Shown here: in pieces, positions 22,608 to 37,235 of the stretch
How positions within the stretch are numbered: the first letter of the stretch is position 1
Layout: each line of letters begins with the position of its first letter
Virus record (IMG/VR): IMGVR_UViG_3300011336_000170
Span: 1 to 39,659 of that record
Reading direction: 5' to 3' (one strand)
Source of the DNA: a virus
Taxonomy: Duplodnaviria > Caudoviricetes
DNA length: 39,659 nt
Made by a program: the position numbers and the translations under genes
The notes under the pieces: generated by a model
Database searches by the model: none
What the model was told of the DNA's origin: nothing
The model's input: only the letters and a program-made list of their open reading frames with translations

Positions 22608-25600
22608 ATGCCATTGCTTGAAGATGACGAAGAAACTACCTCCATTGACGGTGGCTCGCAAGACCAACTCGATGGCGCGCAAACGTCTGGCTTCTCCTCG
22701 TCAAGAGGGGCTGCCAATCCTTACACCGGGCAGCTTCAAACCCTGCTCACTAAGTACCTCCAAAACAGTGAAAAAACAGCGACCGATAAGCAGGCCTTGC
22801 TGGATAAGGCGCGTGAGCGGATCATGGCTAGGTCCGCTGGTCCGGATCAGGCAGAGATTGCGTTTCGTCTGGCAGCTGCTTTCGGCAAGCCTACTCGGAC
22901 TGGCAGCTTTGGTGAAACGCTCGGTAATGTTGCAGAGACGACTAGTGAGGCTCTTTCGCAACGTCGTAAGGGCGCGCAAGAACTAGAAGACTTAAACCTT
23001 AAATATCAGTTGGCATCAGCTGATACCAAAGGCGAAGGACAAAAGGCTCAGATTGGAGCCCTTTCTGCTTTGGCTCGCTCAGCTCCTAGAGATCGCCTGA
23101 CAGAGATTGAGAAGCTGCAAGAAGTCATTGAGGATCCCAAATCGACTAAGGGAGCCAAGGATAATGCTCAAGCGCGTATCACCTATTTGACCACTCGTCC
23201 TTCGGCTGTCAAGACCAATGAGATTGACCAGCTTCTTGAGAAGATCAATGATCCGGCAGTGTCACCTTCCAACAAGGCTGTCTATAAGCAGCGCTTAAAC
23301 AAGCTCAACTATATTCCGGCAGAGGCCAAGGCAGATCGCGATAGCGACAAGCCCCAATCAACACCTGGCAAGATTGCCAAGGATGAAGGTTTGACTCCAG
23401 GCACCCCTGAATATCAGGCTCGTGTCAAAGCTTTGACCGGTGAAGGCAAGGGCGTGAACCTGAGCGCCACCGAGCAAAAAGAATTGTTTGAAGCTGAAGA
23501 CATTGTTAATGCCAGCCAGGCGGTTATCCTAAACTTGAACAAGGCCATAGAGATTAACCCAAAGGCCTATTCCGGCTTTGCGGCTGGCGCCCGCCGGTCT
23601 ATCGCTCGTAACATCCCTGGAGTCGGCGACTCAGAAGGCGTGACTGCCACCACTGACCTTGAATCTCTGGTCGGTCAAAACTCTCTTGACCAGATGAAGG
23701 TCATCTTTGGTGGAAACCCAACGGAAGGTGAACGCAAGATCTTGCTTGATCTTGCCGGATCAATAAACCTTGGTGAAAATGAACGAGCAGCAATATGGAA
23801 GAGGGCGGCTACGGCGGCGGCGCGACGTCTTAAGCTCAACCAGACCAAGATGGAAAACATCCGCAAAGGCGCCTACGGCAAGATCACCCCTGAAGAAAAG
23901 GCAGATGGAGGTCCTGTCGGTAGCTACGCAGATGGTGGCGTAGTCCGCATGGAAGAAGGTGGCGAATACTCGGTGGCAAACTTTGGTCGGGCTGTTGGTC
24001 AGGGCCTAGGCCTTGGCTTTGGCGACGAGGCAGTCGCTCGCGTCCGTGCCAAGATGGAAAATCGTCCCTATGAAGATGTTGTCAAGGAAGAGCGCGAGGC
24101 GTATCAGAAATTCCAAGAGAAGCATCCGTTTGCGGCTCTAGGTACCGAGTTAGCTTCTGGCCTGGTCCCAACCATCGGCATGGCCATGATCCCAGGGGCC
24201 GGAACACCTGGTGCCGTCATGGGAGCAAGTCGTATGGGGATGGCGGCAAAGTCATTGGCCCAATATATGCCTAAGTTTATGACGGGCACAATGGGCAAGG
24301 CTGCAGCTACAGGAGCTACTACCGGAGCTATCGCCGGAGCCGGTTCCGAGACCGAAGGAAATCGTACAAGCGGAGCCGTCAAAGGTGGCACAACCGGGGC
24401 TGTCCTTGGTCCGACTGTTGCTAAGGGCATTCAGCTGGGTGGTCAAGGCGTCACGGCGGTCAAGAACGCGATACGACCATCTCCTGGAGCCGTAGAGCAG
24501 CGCGCAACCAATAAGGTATTGGAAGCTATGGGCAGAGACGAGATGGACACCCAGGCCCTTAGAGAGAAAATGCGAGCAGATCGGGCTCTTGGAGTTCAGT
24601 CTACCATCATGGACGCTACCCCAGCCATGTCTACCCTTGGCGAAGCCGTCGTGACTCGGCCAGGTCCTGGTCGCAAGATCCTTGGCACTGGTTTGAACGA
24701 ACGCCTTGAAGGCGGACGTGAGGCAGCAGCTTCTCGGGCCCTTAAAGACGTAGGCAAGGGTGTTGATTACACTGCCCAAGAAGACAAGTTGGTCGGCACT
24801 TTACGCGCAAATGCCAATAACCTCTACGACACGGCTTACGCACACGGCTCGGTTGATGATACCCGCATCCTGAAGGTCTTGGAGGATGACACCTTTAAGA
24901 AGGCGTTCAAGGAAGCTCAAGCCATCTCCAGCAAAGAAGCACGGGCAGCAGAACTGCGCGGCGAAGATCCAACCCGCTTCAAGCTGAATGACATCTACAG
25001 CCAAGACAAAGACGGCAACTTGATCAGCGTTGGCAAGATCCCTGACGTCCGTACCCTTGACTACATCAAGCGCGGCATCGATGCTCTCATTGACAAAGGT
25101 TACAGAGGCGAAGGTATGGGCAAGGCAGAAGCCAATGCTCTCAAGGATCTTAAGAAGGCCTACGTTAAAGTCATTGACGATAACGTCCCAGAGTACGCCG
25201 CGGCGCGCGCAAAGTATGCAGGCGATATAGAGGTATTAGATGCGCTCCGTATGGGCCGTACTGACTACCTTAGCCCCAAGATGTTACCTGCCGAAGCCAA
25301 GAAGCTGGTCGATGCCATGTCAGACGGCGAGCGCGATGCCCTGCGCGCTGGTGTGGCCCAGTCGCTTCTGACCAAGGTTATGGACGCGCCGCAGCAAATC
25401 AATGCGGCCCAAAGGATTATAGGGGCACCTGCAACCCGTAAGCGTCTGGAAGCCTTGTTCCAAGATCCTAACGAATACAAGGTATTTGAGGCAGCCCTCC
25501 AGCGTGAGTCGGAATTGTTCCGTAATGCCCAGGACATTGTCCGCGGAAGCCGAACAGCCAACAAGACAGAAGCCTTGAAAGACTTGAAGGCCGGCAACGG

Positions 25601-25973
25601 CATCTTCGACATTGCCGGAGAAGCGGTAGACATTGCAGCTGGTTCCCCTGGCTCCGTGGTCGGGCGCGTCTTGAAATACTTGCAGGCTCGTACGTCTCTT
25701 GATGAGAAGACCGCCGCCGACGTGGCCCAGATGCTGAAGTCAGGAACCCAACAAGAGGTCGATGACGTGCTGGGCCGACTAGAATCTAGCAGTGCCAAGT
25801 TTGTAAAAGATCAGGCAACATCTGCTCGTCGTCTAAAAACAACTTCCGGCACAGTGGGAGCTGCCGCCCCAACGACTCGAAGGGCTCCTCCTGAACAGGA
25901 ACCAGAGCCCGAGGGTGAAGATGACGACGCAAAGCTCAAAAGGCTCTTGGAAAAATATAGCACAGAGGAATAA
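22608..25973 (+). CDS. Large internal virion / ejection protein (1121 aa)
   Basis: AAGGA RBS; helical N-half, xxxGG linker at ~aa 431-452, then 'GQGLGLGFGDE', Gly/Ala hydrophobic region, 'LDYIKRGID', 'GSRT'. Confidence 0.75.
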   Translation: MPLLEDDEETTSIDGGSQDQLDGAQTSGFSSSRGAANPYTGQLQTLLTKYLQNSEKTATDKQALLDKARERIMARSAGPDQAEIAFRLAAAFGKPTRTGSFGETLGNVAETTSEALSQRRKGAQELEDLNLKYQLASADTKGEGQKAQIGALSALARSAPRDRLTEIEKLQEVIEDPKSTKGAKDNAQARITYLTTRPSAVKTNEIDQLLEKINDPAVSPSNKAVYKQRLNKLNYIPAEAKADRDSDKPQSTPGKIAKDEGLTPGTPEYQARVKALTGEGKGVNLSATEQKELFEAEDIVNASQAVILNLNKAIEINPKAYSGFAAGARRSIARNIPGVGDSEGVTATTDLESLVGQNSLDQMKVIFGGNPTEGERKILLDLAGSINLGENERAAIWKRAATAAARRLKLNQTKMENIRKGAYGKITPEEKADGGPVGSYADGGVVRMEEGGEYSVANFGRAVGQGLGLGFGDEAVARVRAKMENRPYEDVVKEEREAYQKFQEKHPFAALGTELASGLVPTIGMAMIPGAGTPGAVMGASRMGMAAKSLAQYMPKFMTGTMGKAAATGATTGAIAGAGSETEGNRTSGAVKGGTTGAVLGPTVAKGIQLGGQGVTAVKNAIRPSPGAVEQRATNKVLEAMGRDEMDTQALREKMRADRALGVQSTIMDATPAMSTLGEAVVTRPGPGRKILGTGLNERLEGGREAAASRALKDVGKGVDYTAQEDKLVGTLRANANNLYDTAYAHGSVDDTRILKVLEDDTFKKAFKEAQAISSKEARAAELRGEDPTRFKLNDIYSQDKDGNLISVGKIPDVRTLDYIKRGIDALIDKGYRGEGMGKAEANALKDLKKAYVKVIDDNVPEYAAARAKYAGDIEVLDALRMGRTDYLSPKMLPAEAKKLVDAMSDGERDALRAGVAQSLLTKVMDAPQQINAAQRIIGAPATRKRLEALFQDPNEYKVFEAALQRESELFRNAQDIVRGSRTANKTEALKDLKAGNGIFDIAGEAVDIAAGSPGSVVGRVLKYLQARTSLDEKTAADVAQMLKSGTQQEVDDVLGRLESSSAKFVKDQATSARRLKTTSGTVGAAAPTTRRAPPEQEPEPEGEDDDAKLKRLLEKYSTEE

Positions 25974-25976
25974 GCC

Positions 25977-28900
25977 ATGCCCTATGACGAACAAGGTAAC
26001 TTCTACGGATCTAATGAAGATCTTGGCGACCTAGAGGCGAAGTACGTAAGGCCGGATTACTCCTCACAAATCCCAGGCCAGGTTTCTACCTCTAAGTCTG
26101 AGGCCCCTAAAAGCCTGCGTGAGAAAGCTGTTTCTGCCCTTGTCCAAGCAAATCCTTTAATGGTGGGAAGATCACTCGTAGACACGACTAAGTCCTTTAT
26201 TGGCTCATCGGTTCTTCCTGTTGTGGCGCCTATCAGTGCTGGCGTCCAGGCCTTAAACGCAGCTCCTGGAAACATTTACCGCCGCAGTCGCGGGGAAGAA
26301 GAAGTTAAGACGCCAACGGCAGAAGAGCTGATGCAAAAATACGGCGAGGCCGTGGCTCCTCAAACAGAAATGGGCAAGGGTTTTATTGGTGGCGTTGGCA
26401 AGCTTATGGATACCCTTAAGGTACCCGCTGCTTTTCCGGTAGTTCCTAATGCTCCTAGACGTCCCATGCTGACTCCAACAGACGTGCGCGTAGGAGCTGG
26501 TCAAGTCAAGCAACTGGCCAAGGAACTTCGCGAGACTCCTGCTGACTTCCAAGCTGCGCAATCTGGCCTAAAGCGCCAGAACTTGTATGGTGAAGACACC
26601 ATTGGCGTGAAGGCACAAGCGGCGGCCGATGCTCTTGGCGATACCCTCGAGCGCCGGACTACCTCAGGACGGTCAGCAGTTCCTGGTCTTCCAGGGGCCT
26701 TGACTCCTGAGACCAAGCTTTACGCCGTCCGTCCAAAGGGTTCTCGCATTGTTCAGGCGCAGATACCAGCTACGGCCAAGGGCTTTAGGACTGACAACGA
26801 AACGATCAACACGCTAGTTGAAGACATCTACGGTGACGTTCCTGCTGCTGACATGCCTCCTGCAATGGTCTTTGAAGAATACAATCGCCGGTTTATTCAA
26901 AATAATCCACCTTTGCGAGAGGCCCTCATTGCTGCGGAGCGTCGAAAAGCTAACGAGATGTTTCCAGACGCGCCAACTGAACCCTCTGCTCAGCGGGCCT
27001 ACTCTGTTCTGTATTCCGATCAGCCTAAACGGCATGAGGCATTTTTAGGTCTGCTTGAGGATCTCTTGAATAGTCCTGAGGGGGAGGCTTTTCGCGAACA
27101 AGGGGTTATTGGTCCAAAAGAGTTTATGTCCCGTATGACAGAGGCTGAACGAGTTCTTAAAGGACCTTTTTCAAACTATATCAACAAGACTGTGGGGGCG
27201 GAAGGAAGTCCTACAGTCAAGCTTGCTCGTCAGGGTATTACCTACGAGCGCCCTGAAGACATTAGCCAGTTGGCCGAGTTTGCAAATCCCACTGAGTTGG
27301 CGGATCGACGCCTAGCCTCTGGCTTTCCGGCTATGGGCAGCTTTTACGAGGAGCGTTTGGCCAAGACGGGAGAACTTGATCGCTTAAATGAAGAGATCAA
27401 AGTCCTTGAAGATGCTCGCGCGCCCTTGTTTAATCGTGCTCATGAAGAAGGCATTGACCCGGCTTCAATTCCTGAATATGCCGAGGCAACAAACCCTTTA
27501 CGTCAAAAGCTGCGTCAGCGCGAACAAGTGCTAGGTGAGCTTGAAAACATCAAGCTTGGCACCGCTATGGAAAACGTGGAAGACTCTATCGTCAGGCCAA
27601 TGACCAAGAAGAGCATGCTGAAGAGCCTGCCCTACGAGCAACAACAATTCTTTCCAAGTGTAACTAAGGCCACCGAGGATGAAAAACTATTTCGTATAGA
27701 TAGAGACAGTTTGCTTAAAGACGTGGGCTATAAAAAACTTGGAGCCGCTTTACTGGAAGACATTCTTACAGGCAAGGCCGGTGACACCTCTAAGCTGACC
27801 ATTGAGAATTACATGCGGGAAAAAGGCCTGTCTCGGATAGAAGCTGAAAAAGCAGCCAAGGTCCAAGAACAAAAGTACCGTCAGACCCTTCAAACCACTT
27901 TGCTTGATCGCTTGCGTAACGACCAGAGTGTGAAGACTTTTGGCAATGCCTCTATCATTACTCTTGACCAAAATACGCCGAGAGACGTAGCCATACGAGA
28001 CATGAGTGCAGATACAGCGGTCTTAGACCACTGCGTTGGCCAATGCGGAACTGCCCCCCAAGGACGTAAGAACATCTTGACGGGCAAGCAACAGTACTAC
28101 GAGCCCCTTGTTGATCCCATCACTGGTGAACGTTCAGGCAGGGGCAACAATGAAACCTCTTACGTAAGAGACTTGGAGCGAGGTCATGAGCTAATCAGCG
28201 TTCGCGACTCTAGTACTGGTTTGCCAGCTGCCACAATTCAATTGATCCCTACCAGCGGAGGCAGCGAACTAAGAGACGGCACATTTGACATTGGCTACGC
28301 CTCAGGGGCCAAGAACGAAGCCGTTGATCCAGCCTACACAAATGCAATTCGCGACTACCTGAATCAGAGATCCGGCTCAATTAGAAGCGCCGGGGATAGA
28401 TTAGCTGACCACACTGGCGTGTTTGATGCAAGCAACCCTGGTGACTGGCGGCGAGTGACAAAGGAAGCTGGTCTTACAAAGGATCAAGCAGCGGCTTTTG
28501 ATTTTGAAGCTGGGGAAGGCCTTCCACGGTTTGTGACTGTTGATGATGTCAAGGCTGCCACCAAAGATGTCAGAGAAGCACATCGGGCCCTTGCTGCGCA
28601 AGATCAAGGCCCGGTTGCAACTCTTACTGCCACGGATCATGCCAGGGTGCTGGATGACTTTAACGCTGCTTGGAATAACGCCATTGAAGGGGCTCTTGAA
28701 AACTCAAACCTAGAAAATCCAACTAGAGTCGAAGGAGCTATGAACAGGGCCGTCCTTACCATCTTCCAGCAGCATCTGGAGGATCCGGTTGCCTTTACTC
28801 AAGAGGGCGTCACCAGACTTCGCCGGGCCGAGCGGGATATGCAGAACGTGATTGAAAGCTCATACGCCCAAAATCGCGAAGTAGACACAGAGCTTGCCAA

Positions 28901-30206
28901 TGGGCTTTCAGACCTTTTGACTGATGTTCGTGGTATCCGTTCAAGCATTGAGCGTAGGCTGTCGGCTGCTGAAAATAACCGCGTACAGCCTGAAGAAAAT
29001 TTGCCCGTAGGTGATTGGGAACCTGACGCTGGGCATGCCGCCAATAACCCTGGCCTGCTCCAGGCCGCTGATCGTCTTAGTTTAGCGTTAAGGTACGAAA
29101 TCCCTCCTGTCACAGCAGAAGAGATTTTGACTTATCGATATATGCCGATAGAAAGTCTGGCAGAATTTCGCGACCAGGCTCGTCAAGGGATTGAAGGCAC
29201 AATCTTTGAGACTCTGCCAGATGAAGGCCGGTTAGGGGCATATCGCATGCTCACTGACATAATTGATGAGCGAACCGTTGGAGAAAACTACAATCGCTTG
29301 CGCAACTCTATGCTCACCGATGTGCAGCTTGGCCTGTTAGACCCGGAGCTTATTGATCTGAATATGGTTGTTGAATCCATTCGAGGTCAACAACCACGAA
29401 ATTCACCCCTAATCGATGTGGGTAACGCTGAGCGGCAAATGCTAGCAGACTACATTCAACAGCACGGTTGGGAACCTGAATTTAATCCTCCCGGAGGCCT
29501 ATTGGGAAGACAGCCCGCCCGGCAGTTGCCTGCCCCTGTCGCACCTGCTCAACAAGCCCCGTTTTTGAACGCCCAGTTGGCCCAGCGAGTTGCAGTTCCT
29601 CGTGAAATTCAAGACATGTCCAGGCAAGACTTGATAACCAACATGGAGCCACGCGGAATTCGTCAAGCTGAGGAATTGGCGACGAGGTACTTTGATGAAA
29701 ATATCATCGACGACAATAATACGACCATCAGTGCTTTAACCAACATGATCAGAAATTACAATGTTGGTCCGCACGCCATGACTAACTTTGACGTGCGCGA
29801 ATTGACCGCTCGCAAGCTTGAGGAGATGAACGGGACTGTGGTGCATGATGCGACACAGATTGCTGAGACTCTGCGCGACACGTTTTACGACGATGCAGAC
29901 TCCCAAGAAGACGCAATGCGGCTAATTTCCCGAGACATTGCCGATCTCGAACAACGCGGGGACCTTATATGGGAAGACTTGATTGGCCCAATGGCAGAAG
30001 ACATTCCTTGGAGCCGAAACATTCAGTCCAGGTTGCTTGATAATCTTCGAATCATAGCTGATCAGATCCGCGAGCAAGATAATTTTGCAAAAGGTGGTCT
30101 GGTCAAGAAGAAACGCAAGGCCAACAAGGCCAGAACGTCCTCGGTTGTCACCAGAAGGCACCCAGAGCTTGCCGAAATGCAATATCAGTATGGTGGCATG
30201 GTCTGA
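25977..30206 (+). CDS. Very large internal/polyvalent protein with PcfJ-like domain (1409 aa)
   Basis: GAGG RBS; last gene of the virion module; 'DHCVG…ISVRD…AATIQ…GAKN' at ~27940-28360; basic C-terminal tail with FAKGG and YQYGG. Confidence 0.7.
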   Translation: MPYDEQGNFYGSNEDLGDLEAKYVRPDYSSQIPGQVSTSKSEAPKSLREKAVSALVQANPLMVGRSLVDTTKSFIGSSVLPVVAPISAGVQALNAAPGNIYRRSRGEEEVKTPTAEELMQKYGEAVAPQTEMGKGFIGGVGKLMDTLKVPAAFPVVPNAPRRPMLTPTDVRVGAGQVKQLAKELRETPADFQAAQSGLKRQNLYGEDTIGVKAQAAADALGDTLERRTTSGRSAVPGLPGALTPETKLYAVRPKGSRIVQAQIPATAKGFRTDNETINTLVEDIYGDVPAADMPPAMVFEEYNRRFIQNNPPLREALIAAERRKANEMFPDAPTEPSAQRAYSVLYSDQPKRHEAFLGLLEDLLNSPEGEAFREQGVIGPKEFMSRMTEAERVLKGPFSNYINKTVGAEGSPTVKLARQGITYERPEDISQLAEFANPTELADRRLASGFPAMGSFYEERLAKTGELDRLNEEIKVLEDARAPLFNRAHEEGIDPASIPEYAEATNPLRQKLRQREQVLGELENIKLGTAMENVEDSIVRPMTKKSMLKSLPYEQQQFFPSVTKATEDEKLFRIDRDSLLKDVGYKKLGAALLEDILTGKAGDTSKLTIENYMREKGLSRIEAEKAAKVQEQKYRQTLQTTLLDRLRNDQSVKTFGNASIITLDQNTPRDVAIRDMSADTAVLDHCVGQCGTAPQGRKNILTGKQQYYEPLVDPITGERSGRGNNETSYVRDLERGHELISVRDSSTGLPAATIQLIPTSGGSELRDGTFDIGYASGAKNEAVDPAYTNAIRDYLNQRSGSIRSAGDRLADHTGVFDASNPGDWRRVTKEAGLTKDQAAAFDFEAGEGLPRFVTVDDVKAATKDVREAHRALAAQDQGPVATLTATDHARVLDDFNAAWNNAIEGALENSNLENPTRVEGAMNRAVLTIFQQHLEDPVAFTQEGVTRLRRAERDMQNVIESSYAQNREVDTELANGLSDLLTDVRGIRSSIERRLSAAENNRVQPEENLPVGDWEPDAGHAANNPGLLQAADRLSLALRYEIPPVTAEEILTYRYMPIESLAEFRDQARQGIEGTIFETLPDEGRLGAYRMLTDIIDERTVGENYNRLRNSMLTDVQLGLLDPELIDLNMVVESIRGQQPRNSPLIDVGNAERQMLADYIQQHGWEPEFNPPGGLLGRQPARQLPAPVAPAQQAPFLNAQLAQRVAVPREIQDMSRQDLITNMEPRGIRQAEELATRYFDENIIDDNNTTISALTNMIRNYNVGPHAMTNFDVRELTARKLEEMNGTVVHDATQIAETLRDTFYDDADSQEDAMRLISRDIADLEQRGDLIWEDLIGPMAEDIPWSRNIQSRLLDNLRIIADQIREQDNFAKGGLVKKKRKANKARTSSVVTRRHPELAEMQYQYGGMV

Positions 30207-30391: not shown

Positions 30392-30418
30392 AATCATGGC
30401 TAGTAAAAGTCCCAGCTG

Positions 30419-30466
30419 AAAATAAATTAAAAAAACTGCGTAGCACGTGGTTTTACGCGCTAGAAT
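30419..30466 (+). promoter_or_regulatory. Putative sigma70-type early promoter with UP-like element
   Basis: A-tract at 30419-30435, weak -35 (CTGCGT, 30436-30441), -10 TAGAAT (30461-30466), upstream of the early module; the 19-nt spacing is suboptimal. Confidence 0.4.
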
Positions 30467-30523
30467 CAATCCCATGCACAGCAATCTCGCTTGCATAAAC
30501 AGAAAGAAGAAAGAGAGAATATC

Positions 30524-31510
30524 ATGGCTCACGAAGTTGAAACGATGGCTTACGCCAATGAGACCCCTTGGCATGGCCTTGGCACCCCCGTCGCAGACAA
30601 CCTGACCCCCGCCCAGATGCTTGACGTAGCTGGCCTTGACTGGAAAGTTCAGAAGAAGGCCTTGGTCGTCGACGAACTTGACCACGTGCTAAACAGCCAC
30701 TACGCTTTGGTGCGCGATACAGACAGCAAGATCCTCGGCATCTGCGGCAACGAATATCAGCCTACGCAAAACAGCGACGTCTTTGAGTTCTTTGACAAGT
30801 TCTGTAAGGCCGGCGACATGAAGATGGAGACTGCCGGCTCCCTTTGCGGTGGCAAGCGCGTTTGGGGTCTTGCCAAGATCAATGGCGGCTTTATGTTGGG
30901 CGGCAAAGACGAAGTCCAAGGCTACATCTTGCTTGACAATCCACACATCTGGGGACGCAGCCTGCAGATCTTGTTCACGCCAATCCGCGTAGTTTGCAAC
31001 AATACGTTGACCGCGGCTCTTCAGAACAATACAAACAAAGACAACACCTTCCGCATGTCTCACGATCGCGCGTTTGACGACGAGATCAAGCAGACAGCGG
31101 CTGAAAAAGTTGGCTTGGCTATGAAATCGCTCGACATGTTCAAGCAGCAAGCCGAGTTCTTGTCTACGAAACGCGCCAAAGACCAGCAGGTTATGGAGTT
31201 TTTCTCTAAGCTCATCAATCCGGACCAGTATCAAGCAGCCTTGGTTGCTTCAGAAGATGGTTCCGTCAGCCGTTCAGATCTTGGCCGTACGGTCAACCGT
31301 CTGATCGACATCGTGCAAACCCAACCAGGTGCTGATCTGAAGACGTCAGCAGGTACTTGGTGGGGAGCATTCAACGCCGTGACGTACTACTACGACCACG
31401 TCGCTGGAACTGACCAAGACAAGCGCCTGACAAGCGCGTGGTTTGGTTCAGCCGCAACCCGCAAGCGCCACGCACTTGACTTAGCTGTCGAGTTTGCCGA
31501 AGCAGCCTAA
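30524..31510 (+). CDS. DUF932 family phage/plasmid protein (328 aa)
   Basis: 'MAHEVETMAY…PWHGLG', 'AGLDW.V', 'METAGSL.GGKRVW', 'TPIRVVCNNT', 'GTWWGAFNAVT.Y.DH'. Confidence 0.9.
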   Translation: MAHEVETMAYANETPWHGLGTPVADNLTPAQMLDVAGLDWKVQKKALVVDELDHVLNSHYALVRDTDSKILGICGNEYQPTQNSDVFEFFDKFCKAGDMKMETAGSLCGGKRVWGLAKINGGFMLGGKDEVQGYILLDNPHIWGRSLQILFTPIRVVCNNTLTAALQNNTNKDNTFRMSHDRAFDDEIKQTAAEKVGLAMKSLDMFKQQAEFLSTKRAKDQQVMEFFSKLINPDQYQAALVASEDGSVSRSDLGRTVNRLIDIVQTQPGADLKTSAGTWWGAFNAVTYYYDHVAGTDQDKRLTSAWFGSAATRKRHALDLAVEFAEAA

Positions 31511-31514
31511 AACC

Positions 31515-31532
31515 TAGGGGCTTCGGCCCCTA
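31515..31532 (+). terminator. cUUCGg hairpin after DUF932 (no U-tract; terminator or stability element)
   Basis: TAGGGGC-TTCG-GCCCCTA; shares the 14-mer GGGGCTTCGGCCCC with 101-114. Confidence 0.5.
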
Positions 31533-31555
31533 CCTTCCCACTCTAGGAGAAAATT

Positions 31556-32410
31556 ATGGCAAACGCCAGAGGAAAGTCCATCGACAATACCCACCTGAGC
31601 ATTGATCAGGCGGAAGAGCGCGGTTTCATTCATCGCGACTACATCGCCCACTGCCTACGTTGGACCCACGTGGCCAAGTGGATGGGTAACCCCAAGCATC
31701 GCAAAGACTGCAAGTTGCTTGACATTGGCTGCGGCAAGGACGTACCATTGGCCAAGATGCTCATGACGAGCCGCATGGCGTCTGACGGTCTTGACTACAT
31801 CGGCATTGACTACAACAAGCTGGAAATGCCTAAGGCCTTTGAGAATACCAAGTTCAAGCCAACTCTGATTGGCAACGTTGCCTTCCCAGACTGCACGCTG
31901 CCTCATGACAAGTTTGACGTGATCACAAGCTTTGAGGTCCTTGAACACGTTGAACCACTGCATGCCTATAAGATGCTTGAAGGTATCCGCGATCGCTTGG
32001 CCCCTGAAGGTATTGCCTTCTTGTCCACGCCAGTCTACGACGCAAAGGTTGGGGCGGCAGATAACCACGTCAACGAGATGACTTACGAAGTGATGCAATT
32101 GATGCTGCACAAGGCAGGCTTGGAAGTTGACGCGCACTTTGGTACTTTTGCCTCCATCAAAGACTACAAGGAAATGATTGAAAAAGATGACCTCGATGCA
32201 GTGTTCAGCCGCCTGCGTGATTACTACGACAGCAACTACTTGGCAACTATCTTTGCTCCGCTCTATCCCCACCGATCACGTAATGTGCTTTGGCGAGTCA
32301 AACTGCCGAAAAGCCAAGAGATGTTCAGCCCCGGCAAGTTTGCAGACCTTACTAAGCCACTCTCCAGCAGCGAAGCTTGGCAGCCCCTCTTTGACTACCT
32401 TGGAGAGTGA
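31556..32410 (+). CDS. Class I SAM-dependent methyltransferase (284 aa)
   Basis: AGGAG RBS; motif I 'LLDIGCG', 'YIGID', 'FDVITSFEVLEHV', 'LAPEGIAFLSTP'; small-molecule type, no DPPY/NPPY motif. Confidence 0.9.
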   Translation: MANARGKSIDNTHLSIDQAEERGFIHRDYIAHCLRWTHVAKWMGNPKHRKDCKLLDIGCGKDVPLAKMLMTSRMASDGLDYIGIDYNKLEMPKAFENTKFKPTLIGNVAFPDCTLPHDKFDVITSFEVLEHVEPLHAYKMLEGIRDRLAPEGIAFLSTPVYDAKVGAADNHVNEMTYEVMQLMLHKAGLEVDAHFGTFASIKDYKEMIEKDDLDAVFSRLRDYYDSNYLATIFAPLYPHRSRNVLWRVKLPKSQEMFSPGKFADLTKPLSSSEAWQPLFDYLGE

Positions 32411-32802
32411 TCATGGACATGTTTGACATGGTTGCCGATTTTCATAAAAAGTTTGGACTGGAGCCTACTGCTCAGCCTAACTTTCCAGTTGAAGAGATCT
32501 GGAAACTCAAGAATATGCACATGAGAGAGGAGCTAGACGAGCTTAGGGCGGCTGCGTACGTTGGTAACCTTGAGGAGTACTTTGACGGCCTGATTGACCT
32601 TGTCTACGTAGCTCTTGGGGCGGCCTACTTAGCAGGCCTTCCATTCAACGAAGGCTTTAAGCGGGTGCACGAAGCGAACATGAAAAAAGTGCGCGCTTTA
32701 AGGCAAGAAGATAGCAAACGCGGGTCTACCTATGATATAGTGAAACCTGCAGGATTCGTGGCCCCAACGCTTACGGACCTCATCAGAAAGGAGAAAGAAT
32801 GA
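32407..32802 (+). CDS. MazG-like / PRA-PH all-alpha NTP pyrophosphohydrolase (start could be ATG 32413)
   Basis: 'V.DFHKKFG', 'EELDEL', 'DGLIDLVYVALG', 'VHEANMKK', 'KP.GF'. Confidence 0.85.
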   Translation: MIMDMFDMVADFHKKFGLEPTAQPNFPVEEIWKLKNMHMREELDELRAAAYVGNLEEYFDGLIDLVYVALGAAYLAGLPFNEGFKRVHEANMKKVRALRQEDSKRGSTYDIVKPAGFVAPTLTDLIRKEKE

Positions 32803-33791
32803 AAGGCATTATTGTCATTGATGGTTGCGATGGAACAGGTAAGACTACTCTTGCTAAAGCTATTTGCGACAAGCATGATGGCGTCTACATTCACAACACG
32901 TACCGCTGGCCTTCAAAGATGCCGCTGTATCACACAGCTGCTTTGCATCGCGCATTGAAGATTGCTCGTACACGTCTTGTAGTGATTGATCGCTTGTGGA
33001 TGAGTGAAGCCATCTATGCCGAAGTCTATCGCGACGGCAGCCCTTGGCCTAACATGGGGCGCATGATTGATCGCATTATCCGTAAGGTCGGAGGTATGTA
33101 CATCTTGGCGCAATCTCCACAAGGCCACAAAGAAAAGTTTGAGCAGCTGAAGACAGAGCGCAAAGAGATGTACGACAACGTTGATCGTGTACGTGAACGC
33201 TTTGATCAGTTGTTTGAAGGTGGCTTTGCAGGTCATGATAGCGATTACGCCCAACAGCTGTCTGTGTTTGGTATGCTCAAGCGCGACGACGTCCTTCCAT
33301 ATCGTTATGACATTGAAGGTACAAACCTTGATGTCTATATCGATATGGTGATGTCAGTCCTTGATTCTCGCATGGCTAAGCAATATGCTCCAGCCTTGGA
33401 CCTGCGTACAGAAAACTTTGCAGGCCACGTGCATGAGGCCAACTTCATCTTTGTAGGAGACAAGGCCAATAGCAAATTTAGAGCTGTCAGCTGGCCCTTC
33501 TATGATTTTGGCAATTCAAGCGAGTTTTTTGCTAGTGCTCTTCATGAGTTGACATTTGACGAGACTAGAGCTATTTACATAAACGCTCATGATGAGGATG
33601 GTCTCACGCACATTGATCGATGCCTTTCAGCAAAGCCGTATCTGCACTTGATATGTCTTGGCAATGACGCGCATGCCTCAGTGCACTCACTCACTCGCCG
33701 CATCTCTAACATCTATCATCCGTCATACGCAAAGCGGTTTAACAAAGCCGATGAATTTTTGCTTCAACTTGAGGAGGCTCTCAATGGTTAA
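32799..33791 (+). CDS. P-loop dNMP kinase (thymidylate-kinase-like) fused to a C-terminal uracil-DNA-glycosylase-like domain (330 aa)
   Basis: Walker A 'GCDGTGKTT', 'IDR..MSE.IY'; C-terminal 'FIFVGDKAN…WPF…SS.F…YINA…ICLGNDA…YHPSY' follows UDG-fold motif order. Confidence 0.75.
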   Translation: MKGIIVIDGCDGTGKTTLAKAICDKHDGVYIHNTYRWPSKMPLYHTAALHRALKIARTRLVVIDRLWMSEAIYAEVYRDGSPWPNMGRMIDRIIRKVGGMYILAQSPQGHKEKFEQLKTERKEMYDNVDRVRERFDQLFEGGFAGHDSDYAQQLSVFGMLKRDDVLPYRYDIEGTNLDVYIDMVMSVLDSRMAKQYAPALDLRTENFAGHVHEANFIFVGDKANSKFRAVSWPFYDFGNSSEFFASALHELTFDETRAIYINAHDEDGLTHIDRCLSAKPYLHLICLGNDAHASVHSLTRRISNIYHPSYAKRFNKADEFLLQLEEALNG

Positions 33792-34578
33792 CACGACAAA
33801 CATGAATTGGCAAGGCTTGCTTGATATTGTCATGCACAACGGCAGCGAGACCAGCCCCCGTGGCAAAAAGACAAAAGAGCTCTTGGGCTTTAAGTCGATG
33901 ATTGACATGAATCAGCCGGTCATCACCATCAAGGAACGCGGTCTTGGCTACAAGTTTATGGCAGCAGAAGCAGCTTGGATTATGTCAGGCGACAACCGCG
34001 TTAGCACCATTGCACGTTTTAGTAAGCAGATCAGCAACTTTTCTGATGACGGCATCTTTTTCTACGGGGCATACGGTCCAAGAATACGCGACCAACTGGC
34101 ACACGTTGTCCAGTCGCTATTGGCTGATCCTGACACACGTCAGGCTGTCATCACGATATGGCGTCCAAACCCTCGTGCTTCAAGAGACATCCCTTGCACG
34201 ATCAGCTGCCAGTTTGTAATTCGATCAGGCATGCTCCATTGCTTCATGAACATGCGCTCCTCTGATGCTTGGCTTGGCGTGCCTTACGACTGGTTCAACT
34301 TCAGCATGTTGTCAGCAGGTATTGCCTTGCTTCTTCGTCAGAAAGGTTTAACTGTCCAGCTTGGCTCCCTGCATTTTTATGCTGCAAGCCAGCACCTGTA
34401 CGAAGACAACTGGTTCAAGGTAGATGCTTGCTTAAACGGAGAGATCCTTGGAGACTACGCTCCGATCGACCTTGAATACTTTGAAGACTACGACCACCTA
34501 GTTAATCACTTGTGGACACTGGCAGGTGGCCATGTTCACAACGGTTTTCTCAAGGAATTATCAACATGGAAAGGATAG
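33784..34578 (+). CDS. Thymidylate-synthase superfamily enzyme, probably dCMP-directed (hydroxy)methyltransferase (264 aa)
   Basis: GAGGAGG RBS; 'YGAYGPR', 'TRQAVITIW', catalytic 'DIPC', 'MRSSDAWLGVPYD', 'SQHLYE'; Asp at the specificity position. Confidence 0.85.
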   Translation: MVNTTNMNWQGLLDIVMHNGSETSPRGKKTKELLGFKSMIDMNQPVITIKERGLGYKFMAAEAAWIMSGDNRVSTIARFSKQISNFSDDGIFFYGAYGPRIRDQLAHVVQSLLADPDTRQAVITIWRPNPRASRDIPCTISCQFVIRSGMLHCFMNMRSSDAWLGVPYDWFNFSMLSAGIALLLRQKGLTVQLGSLHFYAASQHLYEDNWFKVDACLNGEILGDYAPIDLEYFEDYDHLVNHLWTLAGGHVHNGFLKELSTWKG

Positions 34579-35072
34579 GCAAAGATGAATACTTTTCGCA
34601 ATTGACTTTACTCGTTGCTCGACGGAGTACTTGTGCTAGGAGGAGTGTGGGCTGCGTTCTCGTATCTCATCGTGGGCATATTCTCGGTACTGGTTATAAC
34701 GGGGTGCCTCGTGGTCATACTCATTGCACTGACGTTCGCTGTCCCGGTGCTTCTCTTCCTTCGGGCACTGGCCTGGACGTATGTGAAGCTATTCATGCGG
34801 AACAAAACGCTCTCCTCCAATGTAAGGACGTTGAACAAATAGACACTGCCTACGTCACTGCTATGCCTTGCATGACTTGTACAAAGCTTTTGCTGAACAC
34901 AAGCTGCAGGCGCATAGTCTACGTTGAGCCATACCCTCACGACACTGCAAAACAACTCTGGATTAAAAATGGACGTATCATCCTATCAACCGCCGAAGCA
35001 CTTTCCCAACCTGTTAGTAGCAAAGAGGATCGCAATCGACTGCGAGACGCGCGACCCGAACTTAATGACTAA
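34566..35072 (+). CDS. dCMP deaminase family protein (168 aa)
   Basis: AAGGA RBS; 'RSTCARRSVG', 'TGYNG', Zn motifs 'HAEQNAL' and 'PCMTC'. Confidence 0.92.
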   Translation: MERIGKDEYFSQLTLLVARRSTCARRSVGCVLVSHRGHILGTGYNGVPRGHTHCTDVRCPGASLPSGTGLDVCEAIHAEQNALLQCKDVEQIDTAYVTAMPCMTCTKLLLNTSCRRIVYVEPYPHDTAKQLWIKNGRIILSTAEALSQPVSSKEDRNRLRDARPELND

Positions 35073-36831
35073 AGGACCTGGAGGAGTACGCAAAGATGGT
35101 TACATCGTGGGATTTTCTGTCGCAACTGATGATGGATTTGCTGAGTACTATCCTGTCCGTCATGCAGCAGGCGGGAACCTTAACCCTGACAACGCGTTTG
35201 CTTGGCTTCGTGATATGCTGAAGACAGACATTCCTAAGATTGGAGCCAACCTGCCCTACGACCTTGAATGGTTGTTGACAGAAGGCGTCAAGGTGGGAGG
35301 TCCTAAGTACGACGTGCAGATCGCGGAGCCTTTGCTTGATGAAGACCGCATCACCTACAAGCTTGATGCCCTGGCCCAGTCCTACCTTGGTGAGACAAAG
35401 GACGAGACAGAACTGATTGCTGCGGCTGTTCGCCGTGGTATCCACCCAAGCAAGGTCAAAGAAAACCTCTGGCAATTTCATGCTGCTGAGGTGGCACCAT
35501 ACGGGCGTAAGGATGCAGACCTGCCTATCCGCATCTTTGCCCAACAAGAAGTCTTGCTGCACGATGAGAAGCTGTGGGAAGTCTTTGAGATGGAGACGCA
35601 GTTAGTCGATGTGATTGTGGCCATGCGCCAGCGTGGGGTCCCAGTCGATCTTGACCGGGCCCACAAGGTCAAGGCACAACTACTTGATGAGCAAGGCAAG
35701 CTGACGGAGCAGCTCAAGAAGGTTGCAGAGCGGGATGTAGACATCTGGTCTGGTGACGATATACAGGCAGCCAGTGACGCATTGAAGCTGGATTACCCAA
35801 AGACTGAGAAGGGGAATGCTAGTTTTCCCAGTGAGTTTCTTGAAGCTAGTGAACATGAATTTTTCTCCTTAATATCCAGGATCCGGAAGCTTGACCGGGC
35901 TGGTGGAGTATTTATCGATAGCAAAATCATTCAGATGGAAAAAGATGGCAAAATTTACCCAACATTCAGACAGGTTCGTGACGATCGGGGTGGCACAAAG
36001 TCCGGGCGTTTTGCGTCGTCTAATCCGAACATGCAGCAAGTACCAGCTAGAGATCCAGTGCTGGCTCCTCTTATCAGAAGCATCTTTGTGCCTGAAGATG
36101 GGTGTCAGTGGGGGGTCTTCGATTACTCGCAGCAAGAGCCTCGTGTCACGGTTCATTACAGCTATCTGCGTAATTTTCCTGGTGCTGAGATTGCTCGCAA
36201 TAGGTATCTTGACGACCCTAACACTGACTATCATCAGCTCGTTGCTGATATGGCTGGAATCACTCGTAAAAACGCGAAGACGCTAAATCTAGGACTTGCC
36301 TACGGTATGGGAGCTGCTAAAGCGGCTACTCAACTAGGCCTGCCTCCAGCAGAAGCCAAGCGAGTCTACGAGCAATACCATGCCAACGTACCGTTCATTA
36401 AGGCGCTTGGCGAGGAATGCACGCGGGTTGCTACTAACAGGGGCTACGTTAAGACGTTCTTAGGTAGACGCAGACGGTTCCAGTTGTTTGGACCACCCAA
36501 ATACACACCAGGTCTGATCCCATTGAAGAAGGACTTGGCTGAGGAAAAGTACGGTCTGCCTTTGAAGCGTTACTTTGTCCACAAGGCCATGAACGCCGTC
36601 ATTCAAGGTTCGTCGGCAGACATGATCAAGATGGCCATGATCAACTTGTTCAAAAAAGGTGAAGTGCCTCATCTGACTATTCACGATGAATTGGACTTTA
36701 GCGTACGGGACTTGGATCACGCCAGATTGATCCGTCAGGAGATGTTGTCATGTGTAGACTTGGTCGTGCCATTAAAAGTAGATTGCGAGCTTGGACCCAA
36801 TTGGGGAGAAGCGGTGGAGGTGAAGCTATGA
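34969..36831 (+). CDS. polA: Family A DNA polymerase with 3'-5' exonuclease (620 aa)
   Basis: ExoI 'IDCET', ExoII 'N..YD', ExoIII 'YGRKD'; 'SGRFASSNPNMQQ', motif A 'DYSQQEPR', motif B 'RKNAKTLNLGLAYG', motif C 'IHDEL'. Exact start uncertain. Confidence 0.95.
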   Translation: MDVSSYQPPKHFPNLLVAKRIAIDCETRDPNLMTKGPGGVRKDGYIVGFSVATDDGFAEYYPVRHAAGGNLNPDNAFAWLRDMLKTDIPKIGANLPYDLEWLLTEGVKVGGPKYDVQIAEPLLDEDRITYKLDALAQSYLGETKDETELIAAAVRRGIHPSKVKENLWQFHAAEVAPYGRKDADLPIRIFAQQEVLLHDEKLWEVFEMETQLVDVIVAMRQRGVPVDLDRAHKVKAQLLDEQGKLTEQLKKVAERDVDIWSGDDIQAASDALKLDYPKTEKGNASFPSEFLEASEHEFFSLISRIRKLDRAGGVFIDSKIIQMEKDGKIYPTFRQVRDDRGGTKSGRFASSNPNMQQVPARDPVLAPLIRSIFVPEDGCQWGVFDYSQQEPRVTVHYSYLRNFPGAEIARNRYLDDPNTDYHQLVADMAGITRKNAKTLNLGLAYGMGAAKAATQLGLPPAEAKRVYEQYHANVPFIKALGEECTRVATNRGYVKTFLGRRRRFQLFGPPKYTPGLIPLKKDLAEEKYGLPLKRYFVHKAMNAVIQGSSADMIKMAMINLFKKGEVPHLTIHDELDFSVRDLDHARLIRQEMLSCVDLVVPLKVDCELGPNWGEAVEVKL

Positions 36832-37235
36832 AGGAAAGCCAGTTTTGGGCTCTGGTCAAGGGCAAGCTGCCTGGCCATGTTGAACGTGTTGAGAACGCCT
36901 TGACTAGAGGAACTCCAGACGTGAACATGTGCCACGACGGCAATGAGCTTTGGCTAGAGTTAAAAGTATTGGATGCCAAGAACAAATGTGAGTTACGCCC
37001 AGAACAGGTCCTATGGCACCGTAAGCGCCAAGAAAGCGGAGGACGTGTGTTTGTATTAGCTCGCAACGAAAGTGTCCTAAAAGTGCTCCAGATTCAGCGA
37101 GAGATGGACCTCTATGAGATCTGGGCGTGTAGCAAGCCATTTGATTGGGAATATATGAATAGCCTGCTTTTTAACGTGCCACCTTTTTGCACTGAGTATG
37201 TTGTGCGTCATGCACAAGTTGGAGGAAAACAATGA
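36828..37235 (+). CDS. PD-(D/E)xK nuclease, VRR-NUC / Holliday junction resolvase-like (135 aa)
   Basis: GGAGG RBS, ATGA overlap; 'MKES.FW', 'RVEN…GTPDV…WLELK…LRPEQ..W'. Confidence 0.85.
   Translation: MKESQFWALVKGKLPGHVERVENALTRGTPDVNMCHDGNELWLELKVLDAKNKCELRPEQVLWHRKRQESGGRVFVLARNESVLKVLQIQREMDLYEIWACSKPFDWEYMNSLLFNVPPFCTEYVVRHAQVGGKQ

Follow-up and report, generated by a model that had tools for sequence, protein, structure and literature searches.

The window analysed here is the whole 39,659-nucleotide (39.7-kb) stretch of IMG/VR record IMGVR_UViG_3300011336_000170. It covers part of a tailed phage, close relatives of which measure 55-58 kb, and riverine and freshwater runs contain nearly identical DNA. 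Between a DUF932 gene and the gene for a family A DNA polymerase lies a cassette of five intact, co-directional genes, all on the + strand. The first (31556-32410) encodes a class I S-adenosylmethionine (SAM) methyltransferase of 284 residues (Methyltransf_23, E 3e-15). It is followed by a MazG-like pyrophosphatase of 129 residues (32413-32802; PRA-PH, E 5e-13), predicted to hydrolyse deoxycytidine and/or deoxyuridine triphosphate (dCTP, dUTP); by a 330-residue P-loop deoxynucleoside monophosphate (dNMP) kinase with a C-terminal domain of the uracil-DNA glycosylase (UDG) fold (32799-33791); by a ThyA-fold enzyme of 264 residues (33784-34578; PF00303, E 9e-22), the synthase, predicted to hydroxymethylate deoxycytidine monophosphate (dCMP); and by a Zn-dependent dCMP deaminase of 168 residues with its HAE and PCxxC motifs intact (34566-35072; PF00383, E 4e-21). 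The polymerase (34969-36831, +) would incorporate the modified dCTP.

A sequence-only reading of this DNA had described the five genes as a cluster suggestive of a non-canonical pyrimidine. The genes prove to be real, intact and conserved, and the domain assignments of all five proteins hold, the UDG-like part being visible in fold search only. A single contig from an independent freshwater run covers positions 30400-37000 with 154 substitutions and no gaps, and the cluster is therefore no assembly artefact. The genes had been called overlapping, which is correct for the last four, from MazG to the deaminase (4, 8 and 13 nt), but not for the methyltransferase-MazG junction, where 2 nt separate the genes, unless MazG starts at GTG 32407, in which case they overlap by 4 nt. 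The cluster had also been placed directly upstream of the polymerase; it adjoins that gene, but the C-terminal tail of the deaminase shares 104 nt (34969-35072) with the polymerase 5' end in a different frame. Among the matches listed, no polymerase of a cultured phage exceeds 44% identity to that of the window, and no host is therefore inferred. The window polymerase scores 314 bits against NCBIfam NF038380, which has a cut-off of 500 bits, and was rejected as a DpoZ (aminoadenine) polymerase.

The nature of the base is predicted from the active site of the synthase, whose residues were surveyed in 70 loci (66 from IMG/VR and 4 from GenBank) using E. coli ThyA numbering. In E. coli ThyA, N177D marks a dCMP substrate, L143D/E a non-methyl product and D169N a 5-hydroxy product (PMC13326640); residue rules for ThyA homologues are likewise given in section 11 of PMC8670742. 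The window synthase has D135, C138, T139, D161 and D169 at positions 143, 146, 147, 169 and 177. D143, C146, D169 and D177 are present in 70/70 loci, and position 147 is T in 66 and S in 4. The window enzyme thus has the combination expected of dCMP/CMP hydroxymethylases, Asp177 together with an acidic residue at 143 and the catalytic Cys146. T4 gp42 carries the identical D143/C146/T147/D169/D177 signature, and among PDB entries the CMP hydroxymethylase MilA matches best (E 1e-23).

Other products were considered and set aside. Both a canonical ThyA and an SPO1-type hydroxymethylase of deoxyuridine monophosphate (dUMP) need Asn177, whereas Asp is found in all 70 loci. The possibility raised earlier that the enzyme simply makes thymidine monophosphate (dTMP) from dUMP becomes highly improbable, and of the two precedents offered for its logic, the residues favour T4 with 5-hydroxymethylcytosine (5hmC, or hmC) in place of cytosine over SPO1 with 5-hydroxymethyluracil (hmU) in place of thymine. 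An Xp12-type dCMP methylase does not fit either: Xp12 has N143/P147 and an adjoining dihydrofolate reductase (DHFR), whereas the cassette has D143 and its relatives lack DHFR (DHFR, ThyX and a carbamoyltransferase are each absent from 5/5 near-complete relatives). A 5-hydroxy-dCMP synthase such as RB69 gp48 would show the diagnostic D169N, which is missing, and because RB69-type hydroxylases also have D/E143 and D177, it is Asp169, again in 70/70 loci, that argues against 5-hydroxy-dCMP. The synthase product is very probably 5-hydroxymethyl-dCMP, with cytosine replaced by 5hmC. The general logic of base substitution proposed earlier, a synthase homologue with its own kinase and a pyrophosphatase, agrees with these active-site residues.

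The structural model of the methyltransferase (predicted local distance difference test score, pLDDT, 90.5) has a class I small-molecule-type fold. The motifs E127-x-x-E130-H131, S157-T-P159 and N170-H171 are invariant in 93/93 alignment rows. With a profile of the catalytic core, HEN1 is the top match (E 2.5e-4) and UbiG the second, and the E-x-x-E-H and STP motifs align with those of HEN1 (3htx); the features that characterise HEN1, E-x-x-E-H as motif IV and TP in motif VI, are both present. In HEN1, the target hydroxyl is bound by a metal whose ligands are E796, E799, H800 and H860 (PMC10781085), and the first Glu of E-x-x-E-H is rare in other small-molecule methyltransferases (PMC1397878). 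Enzymes that methylate base amino groups have (D/N/S)PP(Y/F/W/H) as motif IV (PMC1397878), not the E-x-x-E-H seen here, and a DNA N4C/N6A amino-methyltransferase was rejected. No DNA methyltransferase appears among the fold-search rows listed, and such enzymes may still match beyond those rows. The window enzyme thus shares the class I fold, motif IV and the STP motif with HEN1/Hen1 and UbiG; it differs from them in sequence (no more than 19% identity in structural alignments), in having no RNA-binding domains and in residing in phage nucleotide operons. It is not filed here as a member of the HEN1 2'-O-methyltransferases, but by analogy it likely works like one. As a predicted 5hmC O-methyltransferase, it would perform the O-methylation of a hydroxymethyl group that had been suggested from the sequence, which remains its best-supported role given the HEN1/UbiG-like core, the linkage to Asp143/Asp177 synthases and the exchange of genes in its position.

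Homologues of the methyltransferase number 2,482 proteins at E<=0.001. Their Atlas clusters are 95-100% viral, and the GTDB collection holds only 13 loci. Among 93 loci, made up of the best 80 of 391 viral matches and the 13 genomic ones, a ThyA homologue is in view in 74, and 73 of these have the D143/C146/[TS]147/D169/D177 signature; the remaining one is truncated. Where a ThyA homologue seemed to be missing, locus L111 has it across the circular join and L161 carries one on the same contig at a distance of 58 kb, while L096 and L116 are situated at contig ends. The synthases beside the methyltransferase fall into several deep lineages, one of which includes T4 gp42 (support 100, in a quick tree with long-branch warnings). 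This indicates that the linkage tracks hydroxymethylase function, not lineage.

Several of these loci have additional genes. In L111 (8001-13430) and L171 (12895-17269; genome G001, 57 kb), genes for a C5 DNA methylase and a TylF-type O-methyltransferase stand between the methyltransferase and a row of MazG, kinase-UDG, synthase, deaminase, polymerase and HMUDK_hel genes; the cassette is more elaborate there. The position of the methyltransferase in L163 (8004-10619), two genes ahead of a gene with the N-terminal domain of SAM synthetase and a dUTPase gene, hints at a high demand for SAM. A T4 gp42-like synthase and the methyltransferase are followed by UDP-sugar dehydrogenase and epimerase genes in L098, L118, L122 and L123, with no glycosyltransferase recognised nearby.

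The first slot of the cassette is not always occupied by the methyltransferase. After the 8 of 66 IMG/VR synthase loci with less than 3.7 kb of upstream DNA were set aside, the 58 counted have the methyltransferase in 52, a carbamoyltransferase in 2, a set with a pyridoxal phosphate (PLP) enzyme in 3 and none of these in 1; the neighbourhood conservation that the sequence-only reading had named as a check is therefore found. The 5hmC O-carbamoyltransferase acts on 5-hydroxymethyldeoxycytidine (5hmdC), not on 5-methyldeoxycytidine (5mdC) or 5-hydroxymethyldeoxyuridine (PMC8670742), and the copies counted here were placed in the family of the enzyme assayed in that paper. The family heads a MazG-kinase-ThyA-deaminase row in 10/37 loci as well as in phage Xp15, and 31/32 synthases in carbamoyltransferase loci are Asp143/Asp177 by pattern match. 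The two transferases are never found together: the methyltransferase is present in 0 of 37 carbamoyltransferase loci, and the carbamoyltransferase in 0 of 151 methyltransferase loci (duplicates included).

Other arrangements were seen around related synthases. The cultured Xanthomonas phage Xp15 (L215, 2574-6510) has the row carbamoyltransferase-MazG-kinase-ThyA(D143/D177)-deaminase, making it a candidate natural carrier of 5-carbamoyloxymethylcytosine. In L049 (2865-5986), L057 (2939-6033), L064 (1797-5659) and L210-L213, the Asp143/Asp177 synthase clade and the kinase-UDG fusion are kept, and the slot contains a gene resembling PLP enzymes (PALP, scoring under the curated cut-off) plus two uncharacterised genes, one belonging to phrog_13881 and the other without a family; these loci possibly specify an amino-acid-type hypermodification of hmC. 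A marine T7-like phage (L214, 4420-6441) has MazG-kinase-ThyA-deaminase with a Val143/Asp177 synthase and neither transferase, and is predicted to make 5-methylcytosine (5mC). A Pfam glycosyltransferase was not found among 84 representatives (120-900 residues) of 130 neighbour clusters, nor was a glycosyltransferase found by PHROGs in the 23 open reading frames (ORFs) of the window or in the 18-kb stretch of a relative that covers what the window lacks.

All five cassette genes recur, in identical order, in the cultured Stenotrophomonas phage AXL3 (gp31-gp27) and Pseudoxanthomonas phage PW916; the AXL3 proteins are 24-53% identical to those of the window. Unlike the window phage, both are siphoviruses with ThyX, and in the available text of their papers the genes are taken for thymidine triphosphate (dTTP) synthesis or auxiliary metabolism. 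Since AXL3 encodes ThyX, its ThyA homologue is dispensable for dTMP. Of 37 restriction enzymes tried on AXL3 DNA, only 2, both with A/T-only sites, cut it, and the 35 with G/C sites did not (PMC7504290). The AXL3 enzyme list was compared with the digest tables of PMC7653180, and sites were counted in the AXL3 genome. KpnI has 13 sites, Eam1105I/AhdI 14, PdmI/XmnI 21 and XbaI 1. We take Eam1105I and AhdI, as well as PdmI and XmnI, to be isoschizomers. KpnI and AhdI cut the 5mC DNA of Xp12, and XmnI cuts the hmC DNA of T4gt partially and glucosylated T4 DNA not at all (PMC7653180). Because KpnI and Eam1105I/AhdI cut 5mC DNA and not AXL3 DNA, the digests argue against 5mC in AXL3, and because most tested enzymes cut hmU DNA, hmU alone cannot explain them. 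The resistance to PdmI/XmnI is a weak hint of a capped hmC. A reduced set of genes is present in the cultured SAR11 pelagiphage HTVC200P (L002, 7508-8786), in which only the kinase and a D143/D177 synthase were found, with similar matches in HTVC119P; the DNA of HTVC200P is predicted to contain plain 5hmC.

The remaining cassette proteins fit a nucleotide pathway. The MazG protein belongs to the MazG-like family, and the closest relative with a solved structure is DR2231 (E 3.5e-6), a dUTPase; dCTPase activity is assumed by analogy with T4. In the AlphaFold model of the kinase-UDG fusion (pLDDT 90.5), residues 1-190 match thymidylate kinases (Z 13.3), while residues 193-330 match UdgX (Z 12.3, root-mean-square deviation 2.8, 135 residues aligned) and the T. 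maritima UDG (Z 12.0). This second domain combines the UDG fold with the motif-B His of the superfamily; H307-P308 is invariant, and an A-like motif and motif B are both seen in 50/59 loci. A PDB sequence search with the domain gave no match, and it was placed by fold search only. UDGs of families 4 and 5 require an Fe-S cluster, and the alignment has no invariant Cys, so these families were rejected. The domain is optional, being absent from L003, L031, L037, L056 and L063. In T-modified phages, UDGs fused to the polymerase excise uracil (PMC13697223), making a repair role plausible here. The deaminase retains HAE and PCxxC in 64/67 loci. Activity on 5hmdC was seen in 7 of 90 ThyA-linked deaminases tested, each of the seven linked to a predicted 5mdCMP synthase (bioRxiv 2024.12.05.627091); conversion of dCMP to dUMP is therefore likelier for the cassette enzyme, which likely supplies dUMP for host dTMP synthesis.

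Together, these observations slightly favour a pathway in which the cassette replaces C by 5hmC and the methyltransferase converts this to 5-methoxymethylcytosine. MazG would hydrolyse dCTP (and dUTP) to the monophosphate, clearing canonical C from the pool. The ThyA-fold enzyme, with methylene-tetrahydrofolate, would convert dCMP to 5-hydroxymethyl-dCMP, which the phage kinase and then a host kinase would raise to the triphosphate for incorporation by the phage polymerase, as in T4. With Mg or Mn held in a HEN1-like manner by E127, E130, H131 and H171, the methyltransferase would then move the SAM methyl group to the oxygen of the 5-CH2OH, on either the nucleotide or DNA; by analogy with HEN1, and provided that the synthase product is as predicted, this step is reasonably probable. 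In the most weakly inferred step, the deaminase would shunt dCMP to dUMP, feeding host dTMP synthesis, and the UDG-fold domain may remove uracil or deaminated modified C. The modification likely serves to protect the DNA from restriction enzymes and to mask the free hydroxyl.

A number of points weigh against this pathway. H171 lies 12 residues past STP, and the HMMER alignment to HEN1 ended before H860, so that the pairing of these two residues is inferred. In whole-fold comparison, CmoM (Z 19.0) and ChlM (Z 18.9), which are carboxyl methyltransferases, outscore HEN1 and UbiG (Z 16.2); scores are also level among many N- and C-methyltransferases, and no substrate is singled out. The top PDB match of the full-length profile is a protein lysine methyltransferase (E 2e-7). 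The substrates of HEN1 and UbiG are vicinal diols or catechols, and neither enzyme is known to act on an isolated primary alcohol. HTVC200P has the same synthase clade and the kinase without the methyltransferase, which is therefore optional. In the AXL3 digests as reported, plain hmC is told apart from further-modified hmC only by PdmI/XmnI and the single XbaI site, and both enzymes cut T4gt only partly. Near-identical strains and duplicated contigs make the set of loci redundant, and the counts overstate independent events; the exclusivity of the two transferases covers about 8 kb around the loci plus 5 whole genomes. Many neighbour proteins lack a Pfam family, and a sugar transferase could hide among them. 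Finally, G/C-containing 4-mer palindromes are mildly under-used in the window (observed/expected ratio, O/E, 0.88); however, a 17-kb T4 stretch gives 0.84, so this test does not discriminate, and full protection from restriction would not require under-use.

Some of these points suit an explanation in which the 5hmC of the DNA stays uncapped and the methyltransferase has another target: an RNA or DNA end (as for Hen1), a protein or a small metabolite. The closest characterised core being that of an RNA 3'-end ribose methylase, the lysine methyltransferase match, the HTVC200P gene set and the compatibility of most AXL3 digest results all fit it. Yet the gene sits beside Asp143/Asp177 synthases of unrelated lineages (73/74) and is mutually exclusive with an hmC O-carbamoyltransferase in the same slot, and we regard such a role as unlikely. 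The same co-occurrence would fit with methylation of the modified cytosine at another atom, for example to N4-methyl-5-hydroxymethylcytosine, and several heterocycle N-methyltransferases tie in the fold search; this is less probable still, as motif IV is E-x-x-E-H rather than (D/N/S)PP(Y/F/W/H), and competition for one oxygen more readily explains the exclusivity with an O-transferase.

The synthase and deaminase leave room for further schemes. If the deaminase acted on 5hm-dCMP or 5hm-dCTP, hmU or its methyl ether could partly replace T, with the methyltransferase serving that branch. The absence of ThyX from 5/5 close relatives and the existence of some ThyA-linked deaminases that deaminate 5hmdC (bioRxiv 2024.12.05.627091) would accommodate this, as would the AXL3 digests, since MluCI and MseI cut hmU DNA (PMC7653180). 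It is nevertheless very unlikely, given the 7/90 frequency and 5mdCMP-synthase linkage of such deaminases, the methyltransferase loci L097, L158, L163 and L164 that show no deaminase nearby, and the ThyX of AXL3. A synthase making 5-hydroxy-dCMP, followed by methylation to 5-methoxycytosine, would be an enol-type O-methylation nearer to the chemistry of UbiG, which the core resembles, and the RB69/DLP3 hydroxylases share the acidic 143 and D177 (PMC13326640); with D169N missing and D169 in 70/70 loci, this is highly improbable. An equally slim chance attaches to the genes merely boosting dTTP supply or making Xp12-type 5mC. The AXL3 paper annotates the deaminase, ThyA and kinase as a dTTP pathway (PMC7504290), and the MazG enzyme is closest to DR2231; against this stand Asp177 and Asp143 in all loci, the resistance of AXL3 DNA to all tested G/C-site enzymes, two of which cut 5mC DNA, and the lack of DHFR in the 5 near-complete relatives.

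The cassette with 5-methoxymethylcytosine as its predicted product can be compared with characterised pathways. T4 makes 5hmC with gp42, the gp56 dCTPase/dUTPase, the gp1 dNMP kinase, a dCMP deaminase and glucosyltransferases, and it has in common with the cassette the synthase signature and the accompanying pyrophosphatase, kinase and deaminase. The cassette differs from T4 in its MazG/PRA-PH pyrophosphatase, its thymidylate-kinase-type kinase fused to a UDG fold, its family A polymerase and its HEN1-like SAM methyltransferase in place of a glycosyltransferase. The pathway to 5-carbamoyloxymethylcytosine (PMC8670742, and the Xp15 row) has the same order X-MazG-kinase-ThyA-deaminase with Asp143/Asp177 synthases, X being the carbamoyltransferase there and the methyltransferase here. 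In the Xp12 5mC pathway, which has a 5mC-selective deaminase (bioRxiv 2024.12.05.627091), an Asp177 ThyA homologue adjoins the deaminase as in the cassette, but residues 143 and 147 are Asn and Pro rather than Asp and Thr. In the available text of PMC13229309, O-methyltransferases are listed only as neighbours of dioxygenases. In the literature searched, mostly outside subscription journals, we found no report of 5-methoxymethylcytosine as a DNA base and no description of the product of the cassette methyltransferase. The caps known on phage hmC are sugars or a carbamoyl group. The surveys of Iyer 2013 and of Weigele and Raleigh 2016 may already record the gene linkage.

A few other features were seen in the window and its relatives. 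A perfect 7-bp hairpin with a TTCG loop and without a T run lies at 31515-31532, between the DUF932 gene and the methyltransferase start, and is a possible processing or regulatory signal. A scan for promoters and terminators gave 9 sites versus 3.9 expected and nothing decisive, and in a single RNA run 7% of words were present. Two very large ORFs (1121 and 1409 residues) occupy 22608-30206, after a DNA-ejection protein gene; the 1409-residue ORF has no PHROG family. A Cpn10 chaperonin is encoded among the head genes of the close relative G005 (L170, 3610-4026).

For the phage family as a whole, the balance of probability is about even that, in these widespread aquatic phages as well as in AXL3 and PW916, 5-methoxymethylcytosine replaces C genome-wide through a HEN1-derived, metal-dependent O-methyltransferase, and that this enzyme fills an interchangeable hmC-capping slot held elsewhere by a carbamoyltransferase or the PLP-enzyme set. 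If so, it would be a small, SAM-dependent, 5hmC-selective enzyme, possibly useful, in combination with SAM analogues, to label the 5hmC of mammalian DNA, and the methyl ether would be a new natural DNA base that would explain the resistance of AXL3 to restriction.

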